Source of the DNA: a bacterium
GTDB taxonomy: Bacteria; Auribacterota; Tritonobacteria; UBA1439
Direction: 5' to 3'
Assembly: GCA_028716845.1 (NCBI GenBank)
Contig: JAQUPF010000013.1
Span: forward strand, 890-64,889
Length of the DNA stretch: 64,000 bases
The stretch's first letter is position 1. Each line of letters starts with the position of its first letter. Positions 25,440 through 59,647 of the stretch are shown piece after piece. The notes under the pieces were generated by a model that worked only from the letters and a program-made list of their open reading frames with translations, was not told the origin of the DNA and ran no database searches. Made by a program: the position numbers and the translations under genes.

Positions 25440-25484
25440 CCGTGATGATCCGTGCAAATCCGTGGTGGATTGGTTCTTCTTCCT
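25440..25484. repeat. Dispersed intergenic repeat, canonical copy CCGTGATGATCCGTGCAAATCCGTGGTGGATTGGTTCTTCTTCC
   Basis: 10-bp-phased CCGYG units ending in GGATTGGTTCTTC. Confidence 0.8.
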
Positions 25485-25556
25485 TCAGCTTTGGGCCGTA
25501 TTTGCTCGACAGCCGCGCCCCCCTGGGCTATAACGGGCGCGGTCGGGGATGGATAG

Positions 25557-27026
25557 ATGATTCCGGTCGTGGTCTTCGTCTGCGGCGGGGCGGTGATGGC
25601 GCTCGAGCTCGCCGGCTCGCGCGTCCTCGCCCCGTACGCGGGGACGTCGCTCGCCGCGTGGACCGGCCTCATCGGGGTGATCCTCGCGAGCCTGAGCGTC
25701 GGCTACTGGCGCGGGGGGAGGATCGCCGACCGGCGGCCGTCGCCGGGGACGCTGGCGTTCGTCGTCTTCGCGGCGGGCGTCTGCGTCGGCCTCACCGCCT
25801 GGCTCAGGGACGCCGTCCTCGCGTGGCTCCAGCCGCGGCTGGCCGACCCCGGCGCGCTCTCCGTGTGCGCCTCGCTCCTCCTCCTCGCGCCGGCGAACCT
25901 CTTCCTCGGCATGGTCACGCCGTGCGCCGTCCGCCTCGGGACGCGCGACGTGGCGCGGGCGGGGACGACCGCCGGGCGGGTGTACGCCCTCTCGTCCGCG
26001 GGGAGCATCGCGGGGACGTTTCTGACCGGCTTCGTCCTCCTGCCGCGCCTCGGGACGGCCGCCGTCCTCCTCGCGATCGCCGCGGCGCTCACGGCCTGCT
26101 CGATCGCGGTCTCCGCGTCGCGCTGGGGGTGGGGGAGGGCCGCCGCCGTCTGCGCGCTCGCGGCGTGCGCGCGCCTCCTCCCGTTCGGCCTGCCGGACGA
26201 CCTCCTCGCGGACGTGGACACCGCGTACAACCGGGTCTGGATCCGCCGGGGCGTCGACGGGGGGACGGGGCGGTCGATCCTCATCCTCTCGACCGACCCG
26301 TGGGGCGAGCAGTCGGCCGTCTTCCTCGACGGGGACGACCTCGTCTTCGAGTGCATGCGGTTCTTCCGGCTCGCCGCCCACTTCTCGCCGGGCTTCACCC
26401 GCACGCTCATGATCGGCGGGGCGGGGTACGCGTACGCGGGCGACTACCTCCGCCGGTTCCCGGATGCGACGCTCGACGTCGTCGAGATCGACCCGGGGCT
26501 CACGCGACTCTCGCGGCGCTACTTCGGCCTCGAGGACGACCCGCGGCTCGTCATCAGGCACGAGGACGGCCGGACGTTCCTCAACCGGACGGCCGAGCGG
26601 TACGACGTCATCATCCTCGACGCCTTCAGGGACGGCGTGAGCCCGCCGCACCACCTCGTGACGGCGGAGGCGGCCCGGCGGATGCGCGAGGTCCTCGCCG
26701 ACGGCGGCGTCGTCATCGCGAACGTCATCGGCGCGATCGACGGGCGGGACGGGCGGTTCACGAGGGCGCTGCTCGCGACGATGCGGGAGGTCTTCCCCGC
26801 CGTGGACCTTTTCCCCGTGGACGATCCGACCGACCCGCGGGAGGTGCAGAACATCATCCTCATCGCACGGAAGTCCGAAGCGCCCGGCCCGGACGTGAGC
26901 CGCGACCCGGAGCTCGCCGGCTACCTCGCGCACCGCTGGACGGAGCCGGTCGCCGCGGACCTCCCGGTCCTCACCGACGACCGGGCTCCGGTCGAGTACT
27001 ACCTCTCGGGCGTGCGGCCGGAGTGA
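25557..27026 (+). CDS. Spermidine-synthase-like polyamine aminopropyltransferase fused to an N-terminal polytopic membrane domain
   Basis: 489 aa. MIGGAGYAYAGDYL...LDVVEIDPG...YDVIILDAF are the class-I SAM-fold spermidine synthase motifs. About 7 TM helices N-terminal. Confidence 0.75.
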   Translation: MIPVVVFVCGGAVMALELAGSRVLAPYAGTSLAAWTGLIGVILASLSVGYWRGGRIADRRPSPGTLAFVVFAAGVCVGLTAWLRDAVLAWLQPRLADPGALSVCASLLLLAPANLFLGMVTPCAVRLGTRDVARAGTTAGRVYALSSAGSIAGTFLTGFVLLPRLGTAAVLLAIAAALTACSIAVSASRWGWGRAAAVCALAACARLLPFGLPDDLLADVDTAYNRVWIRRGVDGGTGRSILILSTDPWGEQSAVFLDGDDLVFECMRFFRLAAHFSPGFTRTLMIGGAGYAYAGDYLRRFPDATLDVVEIDPGLTRLSRRYFGLEDDPRLVIRHEDGRTFLNRTAERYDVIILDAFRDGVSPPHHLVTAEAARRMREVLADGGVVIANVIGAIDGRDGRFTRALLATMREVFPAVDLFPVDDPTDPREVQNIILIARKSEAPGPDVSRDPELAGYLAHRWTEPVAADLPVLTDDRAPVEYYLSGVRPE

Positions 27027-27088
27027 CACCCCTTCGGCCGGCGGGCGCGGCGGGCGAAAGTTATAATTGTAAAGGGTTGACCCCGAAT

Positions 27089-27550
27089 CTAAAGGGTCGA
27101 GAGCAGGAGGACGAGGGCGGCGGCGAGGAGGCCCAGAAGGAGGGAGGCGAGGACGGCCGTCCGCCGGCGTCTCCGGCGCCGCGCCTCCGCGACGAGGCGG
27201 ATGACATCCACGTCGTGGATGCCGCTCCTCACCGCCCGCTCGACGGCGAGCGCCTGCGCGGCCATCCAGCGCCGGCAGGCGGTGCGCCTCGCCCCGGATG
27301 ACCGGCCGATGGCCAGGGCCCGCCGTTCGACGAGCTCGTACGCGAGGCAGTACCGCCCCCCATCGAGGCCGAGGTAGATCGTCTGCGGGCAGAGGGGGAT
27401 GTAGCGGCTCCCCGGCCGCCCGTAGAGCCGGGCGGCGACGCCGCTCCCGGTCGTCCGGCAGGCGAAGCCGCACGCGGAGAGGTAGCGCGCCGCGCGGGCG
27501 TAGCCGGCCGTCGCGGGCGCCGCCGGCTCGAACAGGTACTCGAGGAACAT
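27089..27550 (-). CDS. Hypothetical protein with C-terminal transmembrane anchor
   Basis: 153 aa ORF filling the gap downstream of the CPBP protease gene. Same strand, 10-nt spacing. No recognisable family. Confidence 0.4.
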   Translation of the reverse strand: MFLEYLFEPAAPATAGYARAARYLSACGFACRTTGSGVAARLYGRPGSRYIPLCPQTIYLGLDGGRYCLAYELVERRALAIGRSSGARRTACRRWMAAQALAVERAVRSGIHDVDVIRLVAEARRRRRRRTAVLASLLLGLLAAALVLLLSTL

Positions 27551-27560
27551 CTCCCCCCTT

Positions 27561-28790
27561 TCAGCCCGCGCCGAACCGGTCGCTCCAGACCCCCCACAGG
27601 TTGTGGCTGAGGTGGAGGACCATCGGCGGCCAGAGCGAACCGCTCCAGAGGCGCAGGAGGCCGAGCGCCAGGCCGAGGATCGTCAGGTGCGCGAACGAAC
27701 CGAGGTTCATGTGGAGACTGCCGAACATGAGCGCGGCGCCCGCCACCGCCCCCGCGGGCCCCGTGTACCGCTGAAGCCGCGGCTGGATGACGCCGCGGAA
27801 GGCGAGTTCCTCGAAGACGGCCGGGAAGACCGCGCCGAAGAGGAGGGCGAGGGCGAGGCCGTGGGCGTACGGCCGCCAGGGGCCGAGGGCGTCGTCGCCG
27901 CCCGCGCGCATGGACGTGTCGAGGAAGCGGACGAGGAACGAGATGAGCCGGTACGTGGCGAGGCCCCCGGCGAAGGAGAGGAGGCACCAGAACGGCGTCG
28001 AGGGCCGCAGGAGGAGCGCGGGCCGGAGGATCTCCCGCTGGCCCGCGGCGAGGGCGCAGGCGGCGATCGCCACGATCGCCGTGCTGACCATCTCCGCGGC
28101 GGCGGCGTTCGGGACGGCGAGCGCGACGGCGATGATCCCGCCGGCGACGGCGACGTAGAAGACGATGATCGCCCGGAGGTTGCGCCACTCCGCGCGCCAG
28201 CCGGCGGCCGGGCCGTGCGGGACGTGGGCGCGGACGAGCTCCCCCGCGATCTGCCGCGCCTGGAGCCCCGCCTTCGCGGCGGCGACGAGGACCGCGACGA
28301 ACAGGATCTTGAAGAGCCACCCCTGCAGGATGGTCTCCGGCGCGAGGACGGCGTCGAGGACGCTGACCGTCACCCACAGGAGGAGCGCGATGATCGGCGG
28401 GACGATGGCGGACCGCCTCGTCCAGAGGCCCAGGCCCGCGAAGGCGACGGCGAGGGCGGCGTTGCAGGCGAGCCGGAACCGGGTGGCGAAGACGGCTGCC
28501 CGGAGGAGCTCGTCGCCCCTGAGCGTCGTACCGTCCTCGAGGAGGTACCGCTCCGCCGGGACGATCCCGGCCGCGCGGATCGACGCCATCTGCGACCCGT
28601 AGACTGCCAGGCCGGAGACGATCGTGAGGGCGCCGGCGGCGACGAGCCAGCGGGAGGCGCTCCGCGCCCGCCGGGCGGCCCGCTCGAGCTGGAGCCGCTT
28701 GCCCACCCGCGTGGCGGCGATCTCGCCGTCCGCGAGGAACCGGGGTGCGTCATGCGTCATCGCGCCGCGCCCCCCCCAGGCATCAGGCAC
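27561..28790 (-). CDS. CPBP-family (CAAX/Abi-type) intramembrane metalloprotease
   Basis: 409 aa. EELAFRG motif, FGSLHMNLG and HLSHNLW His motifs. Multiple TM helices. Confidence 0.75.
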   Translation of the reverse strand: MPDAWGGRGAMTHDAPRFLADGEIAATRVGKRLQLERAARRARSASRWLVAAGALTIVSGLAVYGSQMASIRAAGIVPAERYLLEDGTTLRGDELLRAAVFATRFRLACNAALAVAFAGLGLWTRRSAIVPPIIALLLWVTVSVLDAVLAPETILQGWLFKILFVAVLVAAAKAGLQARQIAGELVRAHVPHGPAAGWRAEWRNLRAIIVFYVAVAGGIIAVALAVPNAAAAEMVSTAIVAIAACALAAGQREILRPALLLRPSTPFWCLLSFAGGLATYRLISFLVRFLDTSMRAGGDDALGPWRPYAHGLALALLFGAVFPAVFEELAFRGVIQPRLQRYTGPAGAVAGAALMFGSLHMNLGSFAHLTILGLALGLLRLWSGSLWPPMVLHLSHNLWGVWSDRFGAG

Positions 28791-29091
28791 GGGCGGCGTG
28801 ATCCGGCTGAAGATCCACGTAGGTGACGCCCCGCCGCGGCTCGGCCATCATCCCCTCCACCGCCGATCGCCACGCCTGATAGTGGGGGGTCTCCCGGTGC
28901 CGGGCGTGATCCTCCGGCGCCCGGTAGATCTCGATGAGGGTGATGCGTGACGGGTCGTCGGCCTGCTGGAGCATGTCGAAACGGAGGACGCCCGGTTCGC
29001 GCCTGCTGGCGCGCACGTTCTCGATCGTCGCCGCCTTGAACGGCTCGATGCTGTCCGGCTTCACCCGGATGAACACCTGCAGGATGTGCAT
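28783..29091 (-). CDS. Antibiotic-biosynthesis-monooxygenase (ABM) domain protein
   Basis: About 102 aa from MHILQVFIRVKPDSIEPF. GGAGGGG RBS. Ferredoxin-like ABM fold pattern. Confidence 0.65.
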   Translation of the reverse strand: MHILQVFIRVKPDSIEPFKAATIENVRASRREPGVLRFDMLQQADDPSRITLIEIYRAPEDHARHRETPHYQAWRSAVEGMMAEPRRGVTYVDLQPDHAARA

Positions 29092-29245
29092 GGCCCCTCC
29101 TTCCCGGAGCGGCCCCGCCGCCCCGCGGCCGAATCGTACCACAGACAGCGCCTGATGAAAAATATTCTCAAATAAGGGGCCCGCGGACCCGCCTTTCTGG
29201 TATAATAATTATGAAGGCAGGGCGGAGGGGCGGTGTGAAGGCATC

Positions 29246-30013
29246 ATGAACAGGGTCCTTGTCGCGGCACTCGTTCTCGGCCTCGCCGCCTGCGTGGCCA
29301 TCTTCCTGCTCGTCCGCCTGTCCTACATGCGGGCGGAGCAGGATCTCGCCGCGGCGCTCGATCGGGTGACCGCCCCCCCCGTTCCCGGCATCGAGCCCGT
29401 CGCCGGGGGGCCGCCGGACGAGCCGGCCGGTCCGCCGCCCGTGCCGACGGCGGCCGGGGACGGCATCAGCGTCGAGCGGGCCATCAGGACCGTGCACCGC
29501 TTCCTCGACCGCTGGAAACAGGCCTGCGAGCGGATGGAGCGGGAGGGGGAGGAGGTGGTCGGCCCGCAGCCGCTCACGGCGCAGATGGACGCGATGTCCG
29601 CGTTCCTCATGAACCCGTTCTTCCATGGCCACGTCCTCCGGGAGGGGCCGCACCCGGACGAGACGCGGGCGGTCGAGGAGTTCCTCTCCCTGGACTACTT
29701 CCGCGAGAGGGGGACCCGGCCGCGGGAATACCAGATCTTCCTCCCTCACTACCCGCGGTACCGGATTCTCCGCGCCGACCCCCCTTACGCCGATGTGCTT
29801 GCCTCGACAAGGGAAATGGTCGTAAAGAACGAGTTCATGCCCCCCCGCCACGACCGGCTCACGTTCAGGCTCGTCGAGGAGGGGGGGGGGGTGCGGATCC
29901 TCCCGTCGAGGACCACGGAGTTCTCCTCCGGCCAGAAGGCCGTGAGCCCCGACTGGGAGGCGGAATGGCGGGTGGACCCCGACGCGTTCCCGGAGGGGCC
30001 TGCCGTCGATTGA
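29246..30013 (+). CDS. Hypothetical protein with N-terminal TM helix
   Basis: 255 aa ORF, MNRVLVAALVLGLAACVAIFLLV. No family recognised. Confidence 0.5.
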   Translation: MNRVLVAALVLGLAACVAIFLLVRLSYMRAEQDLAAALDRVTAPPVPGIEPVAGGPPDEPAGPPPVPTAAGDGISVERAIRTVHRFLDRWKQACERMEREGEEVVGPQPLTAQMDAMSAFLMNPFFHGHVLREGPHPDETRAVEEFLSLDYFRERGTRPREYQIFLPHYPRYRILRADPPYADVLASTREMVVKNEFMPPRHDRLTFRLVEEGGGVRILPSRTTEFSSGQKAVSPDWEAEWRVDPDAFPEGPAVD

Positions 30014-30027
30014 CCGCCGCGCGCCCC

Positions 30028-30056
30028 TTGACTCAATCCGTTCTCGTCCTGATAAT
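30028..30056 (+). promoter_or_regulatory. Sigma-70-like promoter TTGACT-N17-GATAAT, with a second TTGACA-N17-TATAAG about 50 nt downstream
   Basis: Seen directly in the AT-richer spacer upstream of the PLD/LTD gene. Followed by a GC-rich leader of roughly 230-270 nt before the ATG at 30335. Confidence 0.45.
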
Positions 30057-30334
30057 AATTATTTTCTTCGTAGTTCATTGACATCATGCTGTAGCGGTGC
30101 TATAAGGATAATGGCGGCAGTACCAGAGCGCAGAGCCCGCTCGCGGGGCGGAGACATCCGCGCCGCCGATTGCATCTTCCGATCGGCGCTCCTGACCGGG
30201 CGCCCGATGCCGCGCGAGGTGTCAGTAGTGGTTGCCGAAGGCGGTCCCCGTTCCCCGCGGGGGCGGCGGCCACGGCATCCGGATTTGTCCGTGCGTCGCG
30301 TCGGCGTGTCGTAATAGAGGAGCGCCTGAAGATA

Positions 30335-33139: not shown

Positions 33140-33165
33140 CGGCGCCCCCCGCCGATTTGAAGAAA

Positions 33166-33210
33166 TAATCCACCACGGATTGACACGGATCACTGCGGAT
33201 CATCACGGAT
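33166..33210. repeat. Dispersed intergenic repeat, inverted-orientation copy (CACGGAT x4 at 10-bp spacing)
   Basis: AATCCACCACGGATTGACACGGATCACTGCGGATCATCACGGATCGCC. Confidence 0.75.
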
Positions 33211-33340
33211 CGCCACTGATCGGAATACACTCCTGTCGCATCAGATGGAGGATGTGAAGGATGATGGGGTGATCACCGCGGCACGGTGGCTGCCTCCATG
33301 CGTGCAACCTTCAACTTTGACCTTTCAACTGTGGTGTCAT

Positions 33341-33380
33341 CCGTGATGATCCGTGTCAATCCGCGGTGGATTCTTTCATT
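33341..33380. repeat. Dispersed intergenic repeat, forward copy
   Basis: CCGTGATGATCCGTGTCAATCCGCGGTGGATTCTTTCATT. Confidence 0.8.
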
Positions 33381-33449
33381 ATGGGCCGGGCCGTTTCCGC
33401 TTGTCGGTCGGCGGGGGTTGTACTATATTGTGGAAGGACGTTCCGGCGT

Positions 33450-33525: not shown

Positions 33526-33751
33526 TAACTACAGTTGAAAGTGTAAAGTTCAAAGCGGGACGGCGGCCGCGTCGGAACGTTCAAACACCGGGGCGGGGTG
33601 CCGAACAGACTCCCCGCTGACGATCCCCCCATAGCCGCCGCCGTTGAAGCGCCCCCTCCCATGATGCTAGAATACCCCACATGATCGCCGTACTTCGGCT
33701 GCCATCTGTTGTTTTCTTTCAACTTTCAACTTTCAACCTTGGGCTGTAGTT

Positions 33752-36895: not shown

Positions 36896-36930
36896 AGCGC
36901 CCGCCGCCCCCGCGGACCCGGACCGTTCAG

Positions 36931-38415: not shown

Positions 38416-38435
38416 GATGATTCGGATACGATGCA

Positions 38436-38471
38436 CCAATCCACCGCGGATCGACACGGATCATCACGGAT
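38436..38471. repeat. Dispersed intergenic repeat, inverted copy
   Basis: ACCAATCCACCGCGGATCGACACGGATCATCACGGATG. A second forward degenerate copy at about 38526-38578. Confidence 0.75.
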
Positions 38472-38650
38472 GAAACTGCAGTCAAAAGTTCAAAGTTGAA
38501 AGGGAAAGAGATTCAGCTGCAATGGAATCCGTCGAACGCCGTCAATAATCCGTGGAAATCCGTGGTGCGCGGTTCATTGTTTCGCGGCGGATCCGGCGAG
38601 AAGCGAAATACGGGATACGAACGACGGATCGGACAAGAAGGGGGAGCGGC

Positions 38651-39749
38651 ATGATCGACGAACTCGCGGAGCGGCACGTGAAGCTCATGGAGGGCCTGCG
38701 GAAGCTCGGCGACTACCTTTGACGTCGAGGCGAAGCGGCGCGAGATCGCGGCCCTCGAGGAGGAGCTCGGCCGGCCCGGCTTCTGGGACGACCAGGCCCG
38801 GGCCCGTGCCGTCACCGAGTCGCTCAGCCGCCTGAAGGAGGCGGTCGGGGAGTGGGAGGGGCTGCGGGGCGAGGTCGATGACCTCGGCCTCCTGCTCGAG
38901 GTGGCGCGGGGCGAGGGGGCGGAGGCCGCCGCCGGCCTCGCGGCGGACTTCGACCGCGTCGAGCGCGCCTTCGACGCCCTCGAGGTGCGGGCGCTCCTCG
39001 GCGGCGAGCACGACCGCTCGAACGCCATCATGATGATCCACGCGGGGGCGGGCGGGACGGAGTCGTGCGACTGGGTGGCGATGCTCCTCCGGATGTACCG
39101 CCGCTGGGCGGAGGGGAGGGGGTACGAGACCGAGATCCTCGACGCGACGGCGGGGGAGGAGGCGGGCTTACGGAGCGTGACGCTCGCCGTCAAGGGGCCG
39201 TTCGCCTACGGCTACCTCAAGGCGGAGCGCGGCGTCCACCGGCTCGTCCGCATCTCCCCGTTCGACGCGAACAAGCGCCGGCACACGACCTTCGCCTCGG
39301 CGGACGTCGTCCCGGAGATCGGCGAGGAGGAGGTCTCGATCAGGGACGAGGACCTCAGGATCGACACCTTCCGCGCCGGCGGGCGCGGCGGCCAGCACGT
39401 CAACGTGACCGATTCCGCCGTCCGCATCACCCACGTGCCGACGGGGATCGTCGCCCAGTGCCAGAACGAGCGGTCGCAGCACCAGAACAAGGAGACGGCG
39501 ATGCGGATCCTCCTCGCGCGCCTGGCGGAGCACGAGCGGCGGCTCCGGGAGGAGGAGATGCAGCGGGAGCGTGGCGAGAAGAAGGAGATCGCCTGGGGGA
39601 GCCAGATCCGCTCCTACGTCTTCCAGCCGTACACGATGGTGAAGGACCACCGGACGAAGCACGAGATCGGGAACGTCGAGGGGGTGATGGACGGCGGGAT
39701 CCAGCCGTTCATCGAGGCGTACCTGAAGACGGCGAAGGGCCGCCCCTGA
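38651..39749 (+). CDS. prfB: Peptide chain release factor 2 with programmed +1 ribosomal frameshift
   Basis: Frame 0: MIDELAERHVKLMEGLRKLGDYL then TGA at 38720-38722 within the canonical CTT TGA C shifty site. The +1 frame continues DVEAKRREIAALEEELGRPGFWDD... through GGQHVNVTDSAVRITHVPTGIV (GGQ motif) to 39749. Confidence 0.9.
38717..38723 (+). other. prfB +1 frameshift site CTTTGAC
   Basis: Seen directly. Conserved autoregulatory recoding signal of bacterial prfB. Confidence 0.85.
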
Positions 39750-39808
39750 CCCCATGAACCGCGAGCCGCGGATTATCGGCGGATTTCCACGGATTCCTCG
39801 ACGGTGAT

Positions 39809-39850
39809 ATCCGTGATGATCCGTGTCGATCCGTGGTGGATTGGTTCCTC
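39809..39850. repeat. Dispersed intergenic repeat, forward copy
   Basis: ATCCGTGATGATCCGTGTCGATCCGTGGTGGATTGGTTCCTC. Confidence 0.8.
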
Positions 39851-43777: not shown

Positions 43778-43860
43778 GGCCCCGCGATCCGGGGCGGACA
43801 ATGAAACCCGAGCCGCGGATCTCCACTGATCATCGACTGATATCCACGGATGGTCGTGAA

Positions 43861-43918
43861 GATGATCCGTGCGGATCCGTGATGATCCGTGTCAATCCGC
43901 GGCGGATTGGTTCTTCTT
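43861..43918. repeat. Dispersed intergenic repeat, forward copy with 4-5 phased units
   Basis: GATGATCCGTGCGGATCCGTGATGATCCGTGTCAATCCGCGGCGGATTGGTTCTTCTTT. Confidence 0.8.
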
Positions 43919-43990
43919 TATGACGTGCGGGTGCGCAATCTGTTGACGGGGCGGGGGATATAGGGTATCGTGCGGGGCATCGGGGGGCGC

Positions 43991-44845: not shown

Positions 44846-44867
44846 CCGCCGCCCCCGCGCGGGCACG

Positions 44868-44930
44868 AAGAACAAAGCCACCACGGATCGGCGCGGACCA
44901 GCACGGATCCACACGGATCCGAACGCAGAT
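44868..44930. repeat. Dispersed intergenic repeat, inverted copy (CACGGAT x4)
   Basis: CCACCACGGATCGGCGCGGACCAGCACGGATCCACACGGATCCGAACGC. Further fragments at 44995-45015 and 45133-45179 in the same 430-bp spacer. Confidence 0.7.
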
Positions 44931-45274
44931 TGAAACGCCCCCCACTTTCCCCACTCCCTCCAAGCAGTGAACATCCGAAATACACCACGGCATTCCACGG
45001 CAGATTGGTTCTTGATCGTTCGGTTTCAGGTTGTCAACTTCCAGCTGTAGTTGTATCCGCGCATATCCGCGTTGATCCGAGGCACAACAATACCTCCGAG
45101 GTTTCTCAGTTCATCAGCGGCGGGAACGTCGGGAATCCGCGTTTATCCGTGGTGTTCCGTGAATATCCGCGGCTCGCGGTACATTGAAAAGGGGGGGTCT
45201 GGATTCGGGTCGGCGGTATGGTATAATTGGCCGGTTTTGAGGCGCCCGGACGACTCCCCCCGGGCGGAGGCGAC

Positions 45275-45802
45275 ATGACCTGCGAAATGTGCAAGAAGGC
45301 CGAGGCGACCGTGCGCTACACGGAGGTCGTCGAGAAGAAGGTCGTGAAGATGAACCTCTGCGAGGAGTGCGCGAAGAAGAAGGGGGTGAGCATCCAGGCC
45401 CCGTTCACGATCGCGGACCTCCTCTCGGGGCTCGCCGACCTCGGCTCCCGGGCCCGGGAGGACGCCGGGAAGGTCTGCGACGGCTGCGGCCTCTCCTTCC
45501 TCGATTTCAGGAAGAGCGGCCGGCTCGGCTGCGACCGCTGCTACACGACGTTCCTGAACGGCCTCCACGGCGTCCTCGAGGCGATCCACAAGAGCGTGAC
45601 GCACGCGGGGAAGGTGCCGTCACGGGCCCGGGGCGAGGTGGACCGCCTCCGTCTCCTCGGGGAGCTGGACGCGGAGATGTGCGCGGCCGTGAAGAACGAG
45701 GAGTTCGAAAAGGCGGCGGCGCTCAGGGACAGGATCCAGGCGCTGAAGCGGGAGGCGCGCGCCAGAAGCCGGAAGGAGCGCGCGCGGGGGGCGAAGGCGT
45801 AA
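45275..45802 (+). CDS. mcsA: McsA-like protein arginine kinase activator (zinc-finger + UVR motif)
   Basis: About 175 aa from [13 protein letters not shown]. Paired CxxC motifs (CEMC, CEEC, CDGC, CDRC) and C-terminal UVR-like [23 protein letters not shown] box at 45223-45228. Confidence 0.75.
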
Positions 45803-45819
45803 CGGCCGGGGGAACGCGC

Positions 45820-46920
45820 ATGGGCATCGAGGTCCTGCTCAACCGGGAGGCGGAGTGGCTCATGGGATCGGGTCCCGATTCCGGCGTCGTCGTGTCGAGC
45901 CGCGTGCGCCTCGCGCGGAACCTGCGCGGCATCCCGTTCCCGGGGCGGGCGGAGCGGGACGCCCGGGTCAGGGTCAGGGAGATGGCGGAGGAGGCGTTCG
46001 AGGGATCCGCCCTCATGCAGGGCGCCATCGCGGTGCGGCTGGACGAGGTCGGCGAGATCGACCGGCAGTTCCTCGTCGAGCGCCACCTGATCAGCCGCGA
46101 GCACGCCCGGGGCGACGAGGGGAGCGCGCTCGCCGTCGGCGAGAAGGAGATCATGAGCGTCATGATCAACGAGGAGGACCACCTCCGCCTCCAGGCCCTC
46201 CGATCGGGCTTCCAGCTCGGCGAGGCCTACCGCGAGGTGGACGCCCTCGACGACGACCTGGAGCGGGCGATGGAGTACGCCTTCCTCCCCACGGTCGGCT
46301 ACCTCACCTCCTGCCCCACGAACACGGGGACGGGGATGCGGGCCTCGGTCATGCTCCATCTCCCCGGCCTCGTCCTCGCCAACCAGATCGGCCAGGTCAT
46401 CCAGGCGATCGCCAAGCTGGGGCTCGCGGTGCGGGGCCTCTACGGCGAGGGGACGGAGGTCTCGGGGAACCTGTTCCAGATCTCCAACCAGGGCACCCTC
46501 GGCAAGGCGGAACGCGACATCATCGAGGAGATCGAGGGGGTCATCAACCAGATCGCGGAGCACGAGAAGAAGGCCCGGCAGGCGCTCTACCGGAAGAACT
46601 TCAGGGCGCTCGAGGACAGGGTCTGCAGGGCGTACGGCCTCATCACGAGCGCGCGGATCATCACCTCCAAGGAGACGATCGACCTCCTCTCCGCGCTCAA
46701 GCTCGGCCTCGATTTCGGCCTCGTCGAGATCGATCGGGGGACGATCAACGACCTGTTCATCGTCACGCAGCCGGCGCACCTCCAGAAGCTCGCCGGGAGG
46801 GAGCTGAAGCCCGAGGAGCGCGACGCCATGCGCGCGGACATCATCCGGCGGCGGCTCAAGGAGCGGGGGCAGCCGAAGGCGCCGGGCGGGGGGGCGCCGC
46901 CCCCCGGCGCGGCGGCCTGA
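45820..46920 (+). CDS. mcsB: Protein arginine kinase McsB (ATP:guanido phosphotransferase family)
   Basis: 366 aa from [20 protein letters not shown] phosphagen-kinase active-site block. Confidence 0.9.
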
Positions 46921-46934
46921 GAGGGGATCCGGCC

Positions 46935-49400
<2,466 letters not shown>

Positions 49401-49423
49401 CCGTCGCGCGCCGCGCACCACCC

Positions 49424-53488: not shown

Positions 53489-53522
53489 CCGCCCCGCCCG
53501 CGTCGCGCACAGGGAGGATCGC

Positions 53523-54182: not shown

Positions 54183-54195
54183 GGAGGGGGGCGAC

Positions 54196-55359
54196 GTGGC
54201 GCTGAAGGCGGTCAGGGGACAGGAGCGGGCGATCCGGATGCTGGCGTCGGACGCGGCGGCCGGGCGGCTCGCCCGCGCCTACCTGTTCCACGGCCCCGAG
54301 GGGGTCGGGAAGGAGCTCGCGGCGGCCAACTTCGCCCGCCTCCTCAACTGTCGCTCCCCGGAGGGAGGGGACGCCTGCGATTACTGCGGGGACTGCCTCC
54401 TCGCCGCGAAGGGGCTCCACCCGGATTTGCACTGGCTCATGCCGATGGGGAGGCGGCGGGTGATCTACATCGGCGACGCGACCTCGCCGAAGCCGGGTAC
54501 CGTCCGGCACCTCCAGCACGCCGTCTCGCTCACGCCGTTCAGGGGGAGGTGGAAGGTCGGCATCCTCTGCGACGCCCACTGCGTGGAGGCGCCCGCCGGG
54601 AGCGCGCTGCTCAAGACGCTCGAGGATCCGCCGGACCGGACGATCCTCATCCTCGTGACGGCGCGGCCGGACGCCCTCATGCCGACCATCGTCTCCCGGT
54701 GCCGGGCGGTGCGCTTCGAGGCGATGGAGGAGGGGGCACTCGCCGGCATCCTGCGGCGCGAGCACCACCTCGGCGAGGATGACGCGCGCGCGCTGAGCAG
54801 GATCACGGAGGGGCGGTACGGGGAGGCGCGGCGGGGGATCCAGATCGGGCGGCTCGAGGACGCCCGGGCGCTCATCGGCCATGTGTCCGGCGGCGGCGGC
54901 TACTGGGACGCGGTCGCCCCCGCGCTCGAGCTGATCGTCGACGCCGTCGAGCGGAGCACGGCCCACGCGGCCGGCGGCCTCCGGGAGAAGGGAATCAGAA
55001 TTTCGGACCGCCCGTCGGGCTCGGAGGAGGAGGACAGGGCGGCGAGGGAGCGGCTGGATGCGATCGTCGTCGGCGAGGAGCGGCGGCGGCAGGAGGAGAT
55101 CCTGCGGGACCTCCTCCTCTGGTGCAGGGACCTCATCGTCCGGCGGCGCGGGGGGGCCGGCGCCCCGCTCCTGAGCGCCGCGCCGGCGGCGGCGGTCGAC
55201 GCCGCCGCGGCCGGGGCCGACGAGGAAAGGATCGAGGGCGCCGCGCGCTCCATCGAGGGGGCGCTCGCGATGCTCGACTGGGGGGCGGATTTCCACGCCG
55301 TCGCGGAGAGCCTGCTCGTCCGCATGACCGGCGGGGAGCGGACGGGCCGGAGGAGATGA
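54196..55359 (+). CDS. holB: DNA polymerase III delta-prime subunit (HolB-like clamp loader AAA+)
   Basis: 387 aa, probable GTG start. RAYLFHGPEGVGKELAAANFARLLNC, zinc-module C..C..DC, SRCRAVRF sensor. Confidence 0.8.
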   Translation: MALKAVRGQERAIRMLASDAAAGRLARAYLFHGPEGVGKELAAANFARLLNCRSPEGGDACDYCGDCLLAAKGLHPDLHWLMPMGRRRVIYIGDATSPKPGTVRHLQHAVSLTPFRGRWKVGILCDAHCVEAPAGSALLKTLEDPPDRTILILVTARPDALMPTIVSRCRAVRFEAMEEGALAGILRREHHLGEDDARALSRITEGRYGEARRGIQIGRLEDARALIGHVSGGGGYWDAVAPALELIVDAVERSTAHAAGGLREKGIRISDRPSGSEEEDRAARERLDAIVVGEERRRQEEILRDLLLWCRDLIVRRRGGAGAPLLSAAPAAAVDAAAAGADEERIEGAARSIEGALAMLDWGADFHAVAESLLVRMTGGERTGRRR

Positions 55360-56174
55360 TGTACAGGGTCGTCGAGGTGCGGATGCGCGAGCGCGGACGG
55401 ATGCGCTACTTCAGCTGCGGGGAGGAGACCTACCCGGTCGGGGACCGCGTCATCGTGGAGGCCGAGCGGGGCGAGGACTACGGGATGGTGATGTCGGAGC
55501 CGGAGACGGTGCACGAGAACGAGGTGGACCGGCCCTTCCGGAGGATCCTCAGGCGGATCGCGCCGCACGACGAGCGCCGGATCGCCGAGAACAGCCGGGA
55601 CGCGCACGCGGCGATGGAGGTCTGCGGCGCGCGCATCGCCGAGCGGAAGCTCCCGATGAAGCTCGTGGACGCGGAGTATTCCTTCGACCGCTCGAAGATC
55701 ATCTTCTACTTCACCGCCGACGGCCGGGTTGATTTCCGCGAGCTCGTCAAGGACCTCGCCTCCCGCTTCCGGTCCCGGATCGAGCTCCGGCAGATCGGCG
55801 TCCGCGACGAGGCGCGGATGCTCGGCGGGATCGGCTGCTGCGGGCGGCAGCTCTGCTGCGCGACGTTCCTGAAGGATTTCGAGGCGGTGAACATCCGGAT
55901 GGCGAAGGAGCAGCGCCTGCCGCTCAACCCGTCCAAGATCTCGGGACTCTGCGGGCGCCTCCTCTGCTGCCTCCGCTACGAGTACGAGACCTACCGGGAG
56001 CTCCAGCGGACGATGCCGCGGGAGGGGACGATGGTCGCCACGCCCTCCGGCGAGGGGCGCGTGACCGATGTCTGCCTCCTCCGGCAGTCGGTGACGGTCG
56101 AGCTCGAGAACGGCCGCGTCGTCCGCGTGGAGGCGAAGGACGTCACGCGGCCGCGGGGGAGGAGGGGGGAATGA
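55356..56174 (+). CDS. ricT: PSP1 C-terminal domain protein (RicT/YaaT homolog)
   Basis: 272 aa. GIGCCGRQLCCATFLKDFEAVNIRMAKEQ..GLCGRLLCCLRYE is the PSP1 Cys-rich signature. Typical holB-yaaT synteny. Confidence 0.8.
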   Translation: MMYRVVEVRMRERGRMRYFSCGEETYPVGDRVIVEAERGEDYGMVMSEPETVHENEVDRPFRRILRRIAPHDERRIAENSRDAHAAMEVCGARIAERKLPMKLVDAEYSFDRSKIIFYFTADGRVDFRELVKDLASRFRSRIELRQIGVRDEARMLGGIGCCGRQLCCATFLKDFEAVNIRMAKEQRLPLNPSKISGLCGRLLCCLRYEYETYRELQRTMPREGTMVATPSGEGRVTDVCLLRQSVTVELENGRVVRVEAKDVTRPRGRRGE

Positions 56175-57703
56175 GCAAGGCCTTCTACCTCACCACCGCG
56201 ATCGACTACGTGAACGCCCTGCCGCACGTGGGGACCGCCTACGAGAAGATCGGGGCGGACGCCCTCGCCCGCTTCAAGCGGATCGCCGGGGCGGAGACGT
56301 TCTTCCTCATGGGCGTGGACGAGCACAGCGCCAACGTCGATCGCCAGGCGCGCGCCCAGGGGATGCCGCCGCTCGCCTACTGCGACATGATGAGCGAGCG
56401 GTTCCGGGAGGTCTGGGGCGCCCTCGGCATCTCGTTCGACCGCTTCATCCGGACGACCGAGGAGGCCCACGTCGCCGCCGTGCAGGAGGTCTTCCGCAGG
56501 ATCCACGACGGCGGCGACATCTACCGGGGGTCCTACCGGGGGTGGTACTGCCTTTCCTGCGAGGCGTTCCTCAAGGACGCCGACCTCGTCGGGGGGAACT
56601 GCCCGTCGCACGGGAGGAGACCGGAGTGGATCGAGGAGGAGAACTACTTCTTCGCCCTCTCCCGCTACGGGGAGCCGCTCCGGCGGCACATCGAGGAGAA
56701 CCCCGGGTTCATCCGCCCGGAGATCAGGCGGAACGAGATCCTGCGATTCCTCGACGAGGGCCTCTCCGACATCAGCGTCTCGCGCGCCGGGGCGGGGTGG
56801 GGGATCCGCTGCCCGTTCGACGAGTCCCAGGCGGTCTACGTCTGGTTCGACGCCCTCATCAACTACCTTTCGGGGGCGGGGTTCCCCGGCGACCCCGCCG
56901 CCCTGGAGCGGCGCTGGCCGGCGGACGTCCACATCATCGGGAAGGACATCACCCGCTTCCACTGCCTCATCTGGCCGGCGATGCTCATGGCCGCCCGCCT
57001 TCCCCTCCCCCGCGCCGTCTGGGGGCACGGCTTCGTCCACCTCGGGGGGGAGAAGATGAGCAAGACGAGCGGGACCGCCGTCGACCCGGTGGAGATCGCC
57101 CGGCGGTACGGCGCCGATTCCCTGCGCTACTTCCTCCTCCGCGAGGTCCCGTTCGACCGGGACGGCGAGTTCACGATGGAAAAGTTCCGCCGGCGCTACG
57201 CGGCCGACCTCGCCAACGATCTCGGGAACCTCTGCCAGCGGACGCTCGTCCTCGTCCGGAACCACCTCGGCGGCGTCCTCCCAGCGCCCGGGGGGGAGGC
57301 GGCGGACGCGGACGGCGCCCTCCGGGGCGCGCTCGCCGCCGCGGCTGAAGCCTCCGCCCGCGACATGGAGGGGATGCGGTTCAGCGCCGCGCTCGAGCGG
57401 ATCTGGGCGGCGGTGGGGAGCTGCAACCGCTACGTGGACGAGGCGGCCCCCTGGAGGCTGCGGAAGGATCGCGCGCGCGCCGGGCGGCTCGCCGCGGTCA
57501 TGTACCACCTCTGCGAATCGCTCCGGATACTCTCGATCCTCATCCACCCGTTCATGCCGGCGACCGCGTCGGCGGTCCGGGCGCAGCTCGGCCTCCCGGC
57601 CGCCTTCCCCCCGGGGTGCCTCGCGGAGGCGGCGGAGTTCGGCCTCCTGCCGGACGGCGCCCCGATCGGGGAGGTGAAGCCGCTCTTTCCGAAGACGGAC
57701 TGA
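56171..57703 (+). CDS. metG: Methionyl-tRNA synthetase
   Basis: 510 aa. HVGTAYE (HIGH-type), C..C..C..H zinc knuckle, KMSKT. Confidence 0.95.
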   Translation: MSKAFYLTTAIDYVNALPHVGTAYEKIGADALARFKRIAGAETFFLMGVDEHSANVDRQARAQGMPPLAYCDMMSERFREVWGALGISFDRFIRTTEEAHVAAVQEVFRRIHDGGDIYRGSYRGWYCLSCEAFLKDADLVGGNCPSHGRRPEWIEEENYFFALSRYGEPLRRHIEENPGFIRPEIRRNEILRFLDEGLSDISVSRAGAGWGIRCPFDESQAVYVWFDALINYLSGAGFPGDPAALERRWPADVHIIGKDITRFHCLIWPAMLMAARLPLPRAVWGHGFVHLGGEKMSKTSGTAVDPVEIARRYGADSLRYFLLREVPFDRDGEFTMEKFRRRYAADLANDLGNLCQRTLVLVRNHLGGVLPAPGGEAADADGALRGALAAAAEASARDMEGMRFSAALERIWAAVGSCNRYVDEAAPWRLRKDRARAGRLAAVMYHLCESLRILSILIHPFMPATASAVRAQLGLPAAFPPGCLAEAAEFGLLPDGAPIGEVKPLFPKTD

Positions 57704-57752
57704 ACCCGCGTTTCGTGCCGCGCGCCGCCCGATGTACGATGTACGAAGTACG

Positions 57753-58583
57753 ATGGACGAACTGACCGACACGCACGCCCACCTGACCGACCCGAGGTTC
57801 GACGGCGACCTGGACGAGGTCCTCGCCCGGGCGGCCGCGGCGGGCGTCCGCGCGGTGATCGACGTCGGCGACTCCGTCGGGACATCCGCCCGCTGCGTGG
57901 GGCACGCGGCCCGGCACGACGCCGTCTTCGCCGCCGTCGGCATCCACCCGAACAACGCGGGGCGCGCGGCGGATGACGATCCCGCCCGCATCGCGGCGCT
58001 CTCAGCCTCCCCGAGGGTCGTCGCCGTCGGCGAGACGGGCCTCGATCACGTCCGGGACCGGAGCCCCCGCGCGCGGCAGGAGGCCTTCTTCAGGGCGCAG
58101 CTCCGGATCGCGGCGGAAAAGGGGCTGCCGGTGATCATGCACTGCCGGGAGGCGTACGGCGACCTCATCCGCATCCTCCGCGACGAGCGCGGGGGCGGGG
58201 CCGGCGGCGTCATCCACTGCTTCTCGGGCTCGCGGGCGGACGCCGAGGCGCTCCTCGAGCTCGGGTATTTCATTTCCGTGGGCGGGACGCTCACCTATCC
58301 CGGCAGCGGCGACCTGCGCGAGACGGCGCGGTCGCTCCCGATCGGGCGCATCCTGATCGAGACGGACTGCCCGTACCTCGCGCCGCAGGCGGCGCGGGGG
58401 AGGCGGAACGAGCCCGCGTTCATCATCTCGGTGGCCGAGGAACTGGCGCGGGTGCGGGGCGCCGCCGCGGGCGACGTCGCCGCGGCCACCACGGAGAACG
58501 CGATGCGGCTGTTCGGGTTGCCGCGGCGGCAACAGGAACCAAACCACCGCGGATGCACACGGATCATGACGGATTGCCGCTGA
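57753..58583 (+). CDS. tatD: TatD-family metal-dependent hydrolase/DNase
   Basis: THAHLTDPRFDGD..., GETGLDH, HCR/HCFSG, ETDCPYLAP motifs. The C-terminus (..LFGLPRRQQEPNHRGCTRIMTDCR) reads about 18 aa into a dispersed-repeat copy. Confidence 0.85.
   Translation: MDELTDTHAHLTDPRFDGDLDEVLARAAAAGVRAVIDVGDSVGTSARCVGHAARHDAVFAAVGIHPNNAGRAADDDPARIAALSASPRVVAVGETGLDHVRDRSPRARQEAFFRAQLRIAAEKGLPVIMHCREAYGDLIRILRDERGGGAGGVIHCFSGSRADAEALLELGYFISVGGTLTYPGSGDLRETARSLPIGRILIETDCPYLAPQAARGRRNEPAFIISVAEELARVRGAAAGDVAAATTENAMRLFGLPRRQQEPNHRGCTRIMTDCR
58534..58578. repeat. Dispersed intergenic repeat, inverted copy overlapping the tatD 3' end
   Basis: AGGAACCAAACCACCGCGGATGCACACGGATCATGACGGATTGCC. Confidence 0.75.
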
Positions 58584-58671
58584 TCAGGCAGCGGCCATGA
58601 GTTGATCGAGTCGGTGTTTCGGCAGTGACGCCCCTGCCCGACGGCATCCCTGCCCGATCAGAGGACGCGCG

Positions 58672-59559
58672 ATGAATGAGATTGCCGATCCCTCCCGGGC
58701 CGCCCCGCTCCGGGGCCGGAGCCTCTGGCGCCTCGCCTGGCGGCGGCTCCTCAGGAACAGGATGGCGGTGGCCGGCGGGATCGTCGTCGCCCTCATCGGC
58801 CTCCTCGCCCTCGGCGCCCCGCTCGTGAGCCCGTATGGCTACGACGAGACGTCCCCGGCGCAGTTCAACCCGCCCTCCCGCGCCCATCCGATGGGGACCG
58901 ACATCCACGGCCGCGACGTTCTCACGAGGGTCCTCTACGGCGCCCGGCTCTCGCTCGCCGTCGGCCTCGTCGCGACGCTCGTGAGCATCGTCATCGGCGT
59001 GACCTACGGCGCGGTCGCCGGCTACGCCGGCGGGACGGTCGACGACGTGATGATGCGGTTCGTGGACGTCATCTACTCGCTCCCCTACATGTTCTTCGTC
59101 ATCATCCTCGTCGCCGTGTTCGGCAGGAGCGTCCTCCTCCTCTTCGTCGCCCTCGGCGCCGTGCAGTGGCTGACGGTGGCCCGGATCGTCCGCGGGCAGG
59201 TGCTCGCGGTCAGGGAGAAGGAGTTCGTCCAGGCGAGCCGGGCGGTCGGCGCCGGCCACCTGCGGATCATCGGGAACCACATCCTGCCGAACGTCCTCGG
59301 CCCCGTCGTCGTCTACATGACGCTCACCGTCCCCGCCGTCATGCTCCAGGAGGCGTTCCTGAGCTTCCTCGGTCTCGGCGTCCCCCCCCCGGCGAGCTCA
59401 TGGGGGACGCTCATCGCCGACGGGGCCTCGGCGATCACCATGCTCCGGATCTACTGGTGGCTCCTCGTCTTCCCGGGCGGGGCCATGGCGCTGACCCTCT
59501 TCGCGCTCAATTTCCTGGGCGACGGCCTCCGGGACGCGATCGACCCCCGCATCAGGTAG
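58672..59559 (+). CDS. ABC transporter permease, DppC/OppC-type (orphan: no cognate SBP/ATPase/second permease in window)
   Basis: 295 aa. N-terminal NRMAVAGGIVVALIGLLALGAPLVSPY plus EAA-like loop region typical of the oligopeptide permease C subunit. Confidence 0.75.
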   Translation: MNEIADPSRAAPLRGRSLWRLAWRRLLRNRMAVAGGIVVALIGLLALGAPLVSPYGYDETSPAQFNPPSRAHPMGTDIHGRDVLTRVLYGARLSLAVGLVATLVSIVIGVTYGAVAGYAGGTVDDVMMRFVDVIYSLPYMFFVIILVAVFGRSVLLLFVALGAVQWLTVARIVRGQVLAVREKEFVQASRAVGAGHLRIIGNHILPNVLGPVVVYMTLTVPAVMLQEAFLSFLGLGVPPPASSWGTLIADGASAITMLRIYWWLLVFPGGAMALTLFALNFLGDGLRDAIDPRIR

Positions 59560-59587
59560 GGCGCGCCCCCGATCCGCCGCGGCGGAT

Positions 59588-59647
59588 ACCAGGAACCGAT
59601 CCGCCACTGATGCGCACGGATCATCACGGATCCACACGGATCGCACC
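59588..59647. repeat. Dispersed intergenic repeat, inverted copy (CACGGAT x3)
   Basis: ACCAGGAACCGATCCGCCACTGATGCGCACGGATCATCACGGATCCACACGGATCGCACC. Confidence 0.75.

Follow-up and report, generated by a model that had tools for sequence, protein, structure and literature searches.

Inverted arrays of phased heptamers in an Auribacterota contig as probable gene-less members of a palindromic insertion family with GxxExxY genes

Our analysis of a 64,000-nucleotide stretch of an Auribacterota genome (GenBank assembly GCA_028716845.1, contig JAQUPF010000013.1, positions 890 to 64,889; hereafter the window) concerns a dispersed repeat family built from the heptamer ATCCGTG, or its complement CACGGAT, repeated with three variable nucleotides (N3) at a period of 10 bp. 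We consider it probable that the window copies, which carry no gene, are the non-autonomous form of a widespread family of small palindromic insertions whose gene-bearing members encode the small protein GxxExxY. In kind they would resemble REPINs, the inverted doublets of repetitive extragenic palindromic (REP) sequences, or miniature inverted-repeat transposable elements (MITEs). The copies descend from one another within the genome, they are insertions relative to syntenic relatives, arms of the same design are physically coupled to GxxExxY genes elsewhere, and one such site is found filled, empty and decayed.

The repeats are far above compositional expectation. Exact ATCCGTG occurs 31 times in the window versus 9.7 ± 2.9 times in dinucleotide shuffles, and pairs of units at 10-bp spacing with at most two mismatches number 38 versus 0.8 expected, a count that no shuffle equalled. 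Chaining ATCCGTG/CACGGAT heptamers at the 10-bp period gives 17-18 arrays of 2-4 units each, and up to five heptamers per array when degenerate units are included, so that the three to five units of an initial annotation of this DNA hold at the upper end only with degenerate ones. An array is present at every position which that annotation had listed, and additional arrays lie at 7125, 39778, 43814 and 45055. Tandem Repeats Finder independently reports period-10 arrays at 12102, 33171, 33334, 38447, 38547, 39804, 43864, 44882 and 59615.

The 18 arrays group into about ten elements of 44-324 bp, with a GC content of 49-59% versus about 72% for the window. The basic unit is an inverted pair, (CACGGAT-N3)n, spacer, (ATCCGTG-N3)n. 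In all seven pairs of the window (6853/7125, 11974/12038, 33174/33339, 38445/38548, 39778/39809, 43814/43865 and 44882/45055+45135) the CACGGAT arm comes first and the ATCCGTG arm second; inverted pairs, described earlier as occurring sometimes, are real but are in fact the rule, with a fixed arm order. The two outer ends of a pair, …GGTGGATTGGTTCTTC and …GGCTCGCGGTTCATTG, are related. In unit orientation the first type reads …ATCCGYG-GTGGATTGGTTCTTC and is found at nine array ends, as GGTGGATTGGTTCTTC or a close variant, in line with the initial annotation, which missed the second type, …ATCCGCG-GCTCGCGGTTCATTG, present at about six array ends of the window. GGTTC is common to both types, the ends being written …GGTTC-TTC; the outer-end sequence of the window arms is GGATTGGTTCTTC, and arm ends are also written …CCACGGAT or ATCCGTGG…. 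The arms are 80-93% identical to each other with N3 triplets (ATG, TCA/TCG) and outer ends included, as in the shared arm ATCCGTG-ATG-ATCCGTG-TCR-ATCCGYG-GTGGATTGGTTCTTC, which argues that the window copies descend from a common sequence.

The elements are insertions present in this lineage and missing from syntenic relatives. Apart from an identical LysS recorded for an unclassified metagenome-assembled bacterium, the next LysS relatives have 66-75% identity and carry the label Candidatus Aureabacteria or Chlamydiota. Two relatives, L121 (a Joint Genome Institute metagenome, 61% GC) and L124 (GCA_026392035.1, 58% GC), have the gene order of the window, secA-lnt-prfB-x-lysS-lolC-lolD, which continues with the class-IV aminotransferase gene and mcsA-mcsB-clpC-radA-ispD. 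There are no ATCCGTG arrays in the orthologous gaps of L121 and L124, and the gaps of the window exceed those of L121 by roughly the length of an element:

prfB to next gene: 183 bp in the window, 111 bp in L121
lolD to aminotransferase gene: 192 bp in the window, 94 bp in L121
aminotransferase gene to mcsA: 429 bp in the window, 181 bp in L121

Because the relatives are without arrays and their gaps are shorter by about this length, the elements are insertions and not conserved operators. The promoters just 3' of the elements align with those of the relatives (window TTGACGGGGCGGGGGATATAGGGTATCG, L121 TTGACAGAGGAAGGGGATATTGGCTATCT), and the L121 and L124 gaps hold other short-period repeats (GTGATTG…, TTGGGAT…, GTTGAAA…, and in L121 an array of three CACAGAG units).

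The arrays are not confined to this contig, a point on which the initial annotation had made its own reading depend. A scan pattern of 20 fixed bases and one two-fold position, ATCCGTG-N3-ATCCGTG-N3-ATCCGYG, is found in at least 120 genome stretches from at least 15 phyla, where by our own estimate about 0.5 matches would be expected by chance in 596 Gb, and in 69 stretches among viral contigs. Carriers among the matches listed include Acidobacteriota, Verrucomicrobiota, Planctomycetota, alpha-, beta-, gamma- and deltaproteobacteria, Nitrospirota, Chloroflexota, Bacteroidota, Gemmatimonadota, Spirochaetota, Chlamydiota, Omnitrophota, Lentisphaerota and candidate phyla. The 120 genome loci listed contain 240 arrays, with 79 adjacent pairs in which a CACGGAT arm is followed by an ATCCGTG arm; spacers measure 3-137 bp in 70 of the 79 pairs and 231-562 bp in eight. 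In these loci the reverse arm order, ATCCGTG first, never comes closer than 89 bp, and the modal element has 3+3 units. The outer-end consensus is ATCCGTG followed by G-Y-Y-A-A and then a T-rich stretch, and the base after the heptamer inside arrays is T. A metagenome scan with the window-specific outer end ATCCGYGGYGGATTGGTTC gave 19 matches, none with arrays, and these are thus taken to be chance matches, so that no additional contigs of the lineage came to light; BLAST of the consensus element against plasmid and phage collections found no match, possibly through low-complexity masking.

One of the viral carriers, L200 (IMGVR_UViG_3300009285_005437), is the early region of a Mu-like phage with GemA and an AAA_22 MuB-like ATPase. 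It has seven solo three-unit arrays in one orientation, at 2593, 4067, 5138, 6989, 8621, 8794 and 10679, all on the sense strand and each lying between a stop codon and the Shine-Dalgarno sequence of the next gene. They recall the stoperator or start-associated sequences of mycobacteriophages.

Clustering the open reading frames (ORFs) near the arrays yields one recurrent family, GxxExxY (TIGR04256; PF13366, PDDEXK_3), of about 125 aa. It occupies five of the eight gene-sized spacers, and an unrelated 194-aa ORF occupies one. The gene starts from within the left arm (ATGAACACGGAT…, encoding MNTD…), and the right arm overlaps its C-terminus and stop codon. These cassettes lie in short housekeeping gaps, for example between ispD and ispF or between an ABC ATPase gene and its permease gene. 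Three GxxExxY genes chosen independently of the array pattern are all flanked by inverted, 10-bp-phased arrays of related heptamers:

L117, 1143-1637: GxxExxY gene flanked by CACAGAG
L213: GxxExxY gene flanked by CGCAGAT/ATCAGCG
L214: GxxExxY gene flanked by CACAAAG/CACGAAG

The initial annotation's suggestion to look for an association with a transposase or a REP-associated tyrosine transposase (RAYT) gene proved productive: the window has no RAYT gene, but elsewhere a GxxExxY gene lies between identical arms.

The coupling is also visible in the proteins. In a collection of 5.8 billion proteins, 7,971 of 8,000 scored candidates match the GxxExxY profile at E <= 1e-10; of the 120 top-scoring ones, 81 have M[ND][TA]D at the N-terminus and 60 finish with a tail that the arm encodes, for example …RKKIRENPCKSVA (ATCCGTGagAATCCGTGcaaATCCGTGGC) or …ISDNQRKSVA, the tails lying outside the query profile. 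The arm-encoded peptides are of the types MNTDxHG… at the N-terminus and …IRENPCKSVA at the C-terminus. In viral contigs a search for GxxExxY found two loci only. An AlphaFold model of GxxExxY has a mean pLDDT (predicted local distance difference test) of 84 and is low only at residues 1-6 and 135-148, the arm-encoded tails, where pLDDT is below 50. The confident core is predicted to have a PD-(D/E)XK fold, and the closest structures are Cas4 SSO0001 and archaeal Hjc resolvases (E about 1e-4). A sequence search of the PDB found no relative of GxxExxY, and PADLOC has no GxxExxY entry. The function of PDDEXK_3 is listed as ‘Unknown’, with multiple transfers between bacterial divisions (PMC3424549). 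Full-text literature searches, in which subscription journals were mostly outside the coverage, found no account of the repeat elements, the arm-encoded peptides or the pairing of arms with GxxExxY; the pairing is apparently undescribed, although an earlier description is possible.

What is constrained in the arms is the heptamer, and the 3-nt spacers and the complementarity of arm to arm are much less so. When the best reverse-complement partner was taken for each pattern-matched arm, with all 27 positions weighted equally, the partner matched at 92% of heptamer positions and at 57% of N3 positions. The N3 positions are complementary at 55% versus 40% in shuffled pairings, and complementarity is full in only 6 of 42 equal-armed elements. 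A need for a hairpin alone would keep all pairing and would not fix one sequence across phyla, which indicates that some factor recognises heptamers one helical turn apart in a sequence-specific manner.

One GxxExxY protein, P0187, provides a site that can be compared in several states. The exact protein sits at the lpdA-gcvPA locus in 20 of the 20 contigs that carry it, and the locus is also found in more distant genomes:

L215-L223: GcvPA 100% identical; site filled
L224: GcvPA 86% identical; site empty, the lpdA stop being followed by 1-4 nt and then ATGAAAGAC…
L225: GcvPA 82% identical; site carries the same insertion, with 331 bp of the gene left after an internal deletion and both arms kept
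L226: GcvPA 78% identical; site empty

Since the site is filled at 100% and 82% identity and empty at 86% and 78%, there has been repeated site-specific insertion or precise loss. The filled junctions run …TAAc-ATGAAAG, then caaccattcagcCACAGAT…cassette…tctgcggcgaggtagttaaaa, then ATGAAAGACacc. ATGAAAG (7 bp) is duplicated at both junctions of the cassette in L215 and L225, as compared with the empty L224 and L226, although these 7 bp may instead belong to a more extended region of homology. The right end of the cassette supplies gcvPA with GAGG and an A-rich spacer, and a start and a Shine-Dalgarno-like sequence for gcvPA are kept. CACGGAT and CACAGAT units are adjacent in one arm of L225, so point mutation converts one heptamer flavour into another.

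The cassette's left end (L215 2965-3030, ATGAAAGCAACCATTCAGCCACAGATT) resembles the 5' end of gcvPA (L215 3433-3465, ATGAAAGACACCATACCATACATT) over more than the seven duplicated base pairs, with the first heptamer, CACAGAT, opposite CATACAT of gcvPA. This resemblance hints that there may be a site similar to a heptamer in the target, or else a longer duplication whose copies have since diverged.

Within the window, a gene model based on GC content at third codon positions gives 51 genes and two tRNAs, a coding fraction of 0.89 and 10.7% non-coding DNA. Under this model every array but one is in non-coding DNA, the exception being the copy at 58534-58590, where the final ~12 codons of the tatD ORF are overlapped; the family is intergenic, as first described, but not exclusively so. 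The flanking genes are housekeeping genes, among them secA, lnt, prfB, lysS, lolC, lolD, the class-IV aminotransferase gene, mcsA, mcsB, clpC, radA, ispD, ispF, cysS, tmk, holB, metG and tatD. Individual elements are as follows.

6836-7150, long element: left outer end CAATGAAACAATTCAC; left arm CACGGAT/CGCGGAT, 6853-6889; 235-bp interior with the palindrome CCACCTACGAGGTGG; right arm of two ATCCGCG units, 7125-7141
11958-12135, element: CGCGGAT arm, 11974-12010; single ATCCGCG unit and end GTGAGCGTTTCATT, 12038-12060; additional array ATCCGTC/ATCCGTA/ATCCGTG, 12103-12129
25438-25481, plus strand, solo right arm: GCCCGTG, ATCCGTG, ATCCGTG; outer end GTGGATTGGTTCTTC; about 23 nt upstream of a promoter-like TTGCTC-N18-TATAAC (read by eye)
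33160-33378, composite element between the stop of a PLD-like gene (33139) and the tRNA-Phe promoter: left arm of 4-5 CACGGAT units, 33174-33220; 118-bp spacer with a TTCAACTTTGACCTTTCAAC array; right arm ATCCGTG, ATCCGTG, ATCCGCG, 33339-33365, then GTGGATTCTTTCA
38430-38582, element in the lnt-prfB gap: outer end CACCAATCCAC; left arm 38445-38471; spacer with TCAAAAGTTCAAAGTTGAAAG; right arm 38528-38564, then end GTGCGCGGTTCATTG
39753-39850, short hairpin element between prfB and the next gene: end CATGAACCGCGAGC; left arm 39768-39794; 14-nt loop; right arm of three ATCCGTG units, 39809-39835, then GTGGATTGGTTCCTC; RNA fold -46.1 kcal/mol, z -2.4
43801-43916, short hairpin element between lolD and the promoter of the class-IV aminotransferase gene: end ATGAAACCCGAGC; left arm 43814-43851; 13-nt loop; right arm of four units, 43865-43901, then GCGGATTGGTTCTTC; fold -56 kcal/mol, z -4.0; terminator-like 43891-43911; promoter-like 43943-43971
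44867-45190, composite or nested element in the aminotransferase-mcsA gap: outer end GAAGAACAAAGCCAC; left arm 44882-44918; degenerate end-like piece 44973-45013; arrays 45055-45081 and 45135-45171, then end GCTCGCGGTACATTG
58534-58590, minus strand, solo arm over the tatD 3' end: outer end GGAACCAAACCAC, CGCGGAT, CACGGAT, GACGGAT…
59588-59835, long element downstream of an oppC-like gene: outer end GGAACCGATCCGC; arm of CACTGAT and three CACGGAT units, 59605-59641; single ATCCGTG, 59822-59828

Several elements share more than their arms. The interior of the element at 6836-7150 matches 59645-59743, the interior of the element at 59588-59835 has sequence in common with 6894-6995 and 38578-38632, and 33310-33379 matches 38500-38431 at 86%. 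A 15-bp palindrome, CCACCTACGAGGTGG / CCACCTCGTAGGTGG, which contains GTAG, is common to the two long elements (6897-6911 and 59738-59752). A 46-bp segment of the first of these, 6989-7034, is 87% identical to 20147-20192, just 3' of a polyprenyl synthetase gene.

A second repeat family consists of contiguous GTTGAAA/TTTCAAC-type heptamers with a 7-8-bp period that end in CTRYAG. Its sites in the window are 33527-33560 and 33712-33750, as well as 33305-33335, 38476-38504 and 45025-45053, and it occurs in the tRNA-Phe-secA region of L121. There the position is conserved: an inverted pair surrounds the tRNA-Phe-secA spacer both in the window and in this relative of 75% identity. Copies are nested beside CACGGAT arms in three composite elements, and similar GTTGAAA-type arrays adjoin ATCCGTG arrays in L075 and L036. 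Heptamer tandems of ACGATGT (3.4 copies, 8127-8150, intergenic) and CGATGTA (4.4 copies, 57730-57760) may be another small repeat family; the latter spans the gap 5' of tatD and the first bases of the predicted tatD ORF (57753).

Other features of the neighbourhood are recorded here. The gap before lysS in L121 (9040-10000) contains the array of three CACAGAG units and, between repeats of other types (GTCACCCCTGCGGAAGCAGGGGTCCAGCG and GGATTCCGGCGTTCGCCGGAATGAC), a gene for a GIY-YIG nuclease of 97 aa; neither the array nor the gene is in the window, and the gene represents another small-nuclease cassette polymorphism at a housekeeping locus. The mcsA-mcsB-clpC-radA cluster (45275-49400) has no adjacent ctsR, a composite repeat element fills its upstream gap, and its host lineage is high-GC and PVC-like (Planctomycetes-Verrucomicrobia-Chlamydiae) or Aureabacteria-like. 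The prfB gene (38682-39749) lies in two frames, with a PCRF/RF-1 match from 38901 and an upstream ORF from about 38682; given the CTTTGA-type site in relatives, this looks like the usual programmed +1 frameshift, an ordinary feature. Downstream of tRNA-Met (20379-20460), whose last 35 bp (20426-20460) are repeated exactly at 20794-20828 in the manner of an att duplication, is an island of low GC content at 20.2-25.4 kb (55-61% versus 72%). It carries a 1041-aa, beta-propeller/NHL-like ORF (21604-24729) with an internal duplication of about 0.9 kb (21688-22592 versus 22732-23642, 72.5%) and 24-bp tandem repeats (24180-24284), and it is probably an integrated or foreign segment.

We hypothesize that an oligomeric protein, for which the Hjc/Cas4-like GxxExxY nuclease would be the prime candidate, recognises the phased heptamers, and that at an exact 10-bp period all units would face one side of the helix. 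GxxExxY would act on the duplex or on an extruded hairpin and lead to copying into new intergenic sites, in a homing- or transposition-like manner. By analogy with what has been proposed for REPINs and RAYT, gene-less pairs would use GxxExxY in trans. Once in place between a stop codon and the next promoter, an element would probably also serve as a bidirectional terminator or RNA-end stabiliser.

A bolder extension, which we put forward tentatively and think somewhat doubtful, is that arms plus GxxExxY constitute an unrecognised class of prokaryotic mobile element. In this minimal cassette, a nuclease of about 125 aa with a Hjc/Cas4-like PD-(D/E)XK fold would read three heptamers per arm on a single face of the helix. 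The cassette would home into short gaps between genes, including those within operons, and restore the start signals of the neighbour; it would give rise to REPIN-like copies without a gene and pass between phyla and phages. If this were true, the window would belong to a genome in which the gene-less form occupies a large part of the intergenic DNA.

Several observations weigh against gene-less copies mobilised by GxxExxY. No target-site duplication is evident at the window copies, and Pfam and profile searches find no GxxExxY gene, transposase, RAYT or integrase in the 64 kb. The nearest relative available for comparison, at 75% LysS identity, is too distant to display an empty site at nucleotide resolution. 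The fold match of GxxExxY to Hjc and Cas4 is moderate, with template-modelling scores of 0.36-0.49. The scan required exact heptamers in one arm, which inflates conservation there, and the partner arm was used for the unbiased estimate. Identical copies of P0187 at multiple loci were not found among the 20 contigs; its single locus implies that the cassette is stable and not actively hopping. Finally, L225 demonstrates that gene-less remnants can also come from decay in place.

This last point leads to an alternative in which each window copy is the relic of an independent GxxExxY-cassette insertion, its gene deleted in place, with no gene-less proliferation. L225, at the site of L215, is such an intermediate, and GxxExxY cassettes enter the same type of short intergenic gap. 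However, a profile search of the six-frame translated window and of the spacers gives no GxxExxY match (E above 4, negative scores), whereas the decayed L225 remnant, as a control, is still detected at E 3e-10. The short elements have outer ends and N3 triplets in common at 80-93% identity, which points to a gene-less master copy, and ten independent clean deletions would be unparsimonious. The absence of a GxxExxY trace together with the shared ends and triplets favours spread as gene-less units, and we regard independent decay as unlikely, although it is possible that the window copies are very old decayed cassettes. A host role at the RNA level is a further alternative, in which the elements would be kept as bidirectional terminators, mRNA-end stabilisers, RNase III stems or RNA-binding platforms, and spread would be secondary. 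The short elements fold as RNA to hairpins of -46 to -56 kcal/mol (z -1.9 to -4.0), each inverted pair giving a hairpin and then a T-rich tail, with A-rich and T-rich tracts on the flanks. The outward-facing element ends, as small hairpins with TTCTTCTTT-like tails, make up at least 5 of the 11 matches of a terminator scan at 33-46 kb, and the position between stop codon and next promoter, the T-richness beyond the last unit across phyla and the seven sense-strand arrays of L200 fit as well. Selection for a hairpin would nevertheless keep all pairing, not the observed imbalance between N3 and heptamer positions, and a terminator role cannot account for one heptamer across at least 15 phyla. 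Solo arrays in cellular loci have no convincing strand bias relative to flanking genes (9 versus 7 co-directional, with crude gene calls), and the syntenic relatives have unrelated sequences at the same gaps. Searches of Rfam, at gathering thresholds and at E <= 5, return the two tRNAs only and no match on the repeats. The unit ACACGGAUGA presumably resembles the CsrA/RsmE consensus (A/U)CANGGANG(U/A), but the window N3 triplets CAT, TGA and CGA misfit it. We therefore doubt that RNA function is primary, while a terminator or other RNA role is compatible with gene-less insertion as a secondary effect.

The arrays could also be operators or architectural sites for a host transcription factor or nucleoid-associated protein, phased on one helix face 5' of housekeeping promoters and comparable to MraZ, CtsR, ParR or iteron sites. 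The exact 10-bp phasing and the constrained heptamers with free spacers would suit such sites, and three copies (ends 25481, 33378 and 43916) stop 23-27 nt upstream of a promoter-like -35 hexamer. Yet L121 and L124 have conserved orthologous promoters that lack the arrays, and the register of the heptamers to the predicted start sites varies among copies (roughly -97/-87/-77, -113…-83 and -91/-81). Some copies lie directly 3' of stop codons and face away from any promoter, the outer ends and N3 triplets are shared beyond any binding-site need, and identical arms flank a nuclease gene in unrelated phyla. Host regulation is accordingly very unlikely in our judgement; of the initial annotation's proposal of binding-site arrays, what survives is heptamer-specific recognition, whereas positions that are not conserved and a varying register speak against a host regulator. 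Still more remote, and highly improbable, are attC-like recombination sites of integron-type cassettes, single or clustered and without an integrase. Imperfect palindromes do bracket small promoter-less ORFs, the outer consensus given above faintly recalls GTTRRRY in a loose overlap, and L200 has sites of the same orientation between successive genes. However, the window has no integrase, attC sites have an R''-L''/L'-R' architecture that 3+3 phased heptamers do not resemble, L200 is the early region of a Mu-like phage and not a cassette array, and the lpdA/gcvPA cassette has inverted arms on both sides and a 7-bp duplication instead of one attC per cassette.

Some further candidates were set aside. 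A promoter reading, with TTGACA formed by N3 = TGA, was dropped for want of a -10 element at the right distance. DnaA boxes, SeqA/GATC phasing, Chi sites, uptake sequences, restriction-site decoys and end repeats of the Tn7, Mu or IS21 type were dropped on sequence or context alone. Clustered regularly interspaced short palindromic repeats (CRISPR), which the initial annotation had correctly dismissed for irregular spacing and the lack of unique spacers, are rejected in view of 7-bp units, 3-bp spacers, 2-5 units per array and inverted pairs.

These elements matter beyond one contig because GxxExxY/PDDEXK_3 is a very large family with no assigned function, and the architecture together with the filled and empty sites suggests a testable role as the enzyme of a selfish element. 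The arm sequences explain recurrent ‘junk’ tails in protein databases, MNTDxHG… and …IRENPCKSVA, and automatic masking or annotation in metagenome-assembled genomes is possible; in such genomes these repeats break assemblies and mislead gene callers. If the elements are portable bidirectional terminators, they would also bear on operon prediction in uncultivated phyla.

Known systems share parts of this design. MraZ boxes, CtsR heptad repeats, ParR/parC sites and iterons occur at one or a few conserved loci per replicon and have a known cognate regulator. Like these phased operators, the window arrays consist of short units about one helical turn apart, implying cooperative binding of several subunits on one face of the DNA; unlike them, they occur at about ten loci in 64 kb, as inverted pairs, at non-orthologous positions and across phyla. 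Intervening sequences of 23S rRNA (S23p/four-helix-bundle) and free-standing homing-endonuclease genes place a tiny ORF in a long stem, are patchily distributed and do little harm to the host. GxxExxY cassettes resemble the 23S rRNA intervening sequences in having a tiny ORF within inverted repeats and a precise insertion between or into conserved genes, but differ in ORF family, in intergenic targets instead of rRNA helices and in periodic arms, and homing would here be the presumed mode. Bacterial MITEs (Correia/NEMIS, RUP, Nezha) are likewise below 350 bp, relatively GC-poor, intergenic and non-coding, with terminal inverted repeats, copy families within genomes and gene-bearing relatives with the same ends. 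Unlike MITEs, our elements have no detected parent insertion sequence with a DDE transposase, and their terminal repeats are internally periodic. Target duplication is seen once only, as the 7-bp ATGAAAG at a gene-bearing relative, with none evident at the window copies.

The initial annotation had compared the family with REP or BIME (bacterial interspersed mosaic element) sequences or MITEs. This is apt in kind, since there are a copy family, hairpins and insertions, but a strict REP/BIME assignment fails for lack of GTAG/CGTC and RAYT. REPs are defined as imperfect palindromes of 20-40 bp with a GTAG or CGTC tag at one end, and RAYT is a tyrosine transposase of the HUH type (PMC3733652). 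In common with REP and REPIN-RAYT systems, the elements are short, multi-copy intergenic palindromes whose inverted doublets form hairpins at gene ends, with a possible terminator or mRNA-stabilising effect, and one small gene of nuclease type lies between copies of the repeat and would mobilise the gene-less copies in trans. However, each arm here comprises about three heptamers phased at 10 bp and has no GTAG/CGTC head at the window ends, and the associated gene is PD-(D/E)XK (PDDEXK_3/GxxExxY) and not an HUH tyrosine transposase, Pfam finding no Y1_Tnp in the window. The arms also overlap the GxxExxY coding sequence, and the heptamer is common to many phyla and phages. REPIN-RAYT is the closest system in logic, although its two defining features are lacking here, and GxxExxY would be a second, mechanistically different counterpart to it. 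The arms of GxxExxY cassettes are inverted arrays of about three CRCRRAK-type heptamers at 10-bp phase: the window elements have neither a GxxExxY gene nor a recognisable remnant of one between their arms, but heptamer, period, order and unit number all match.

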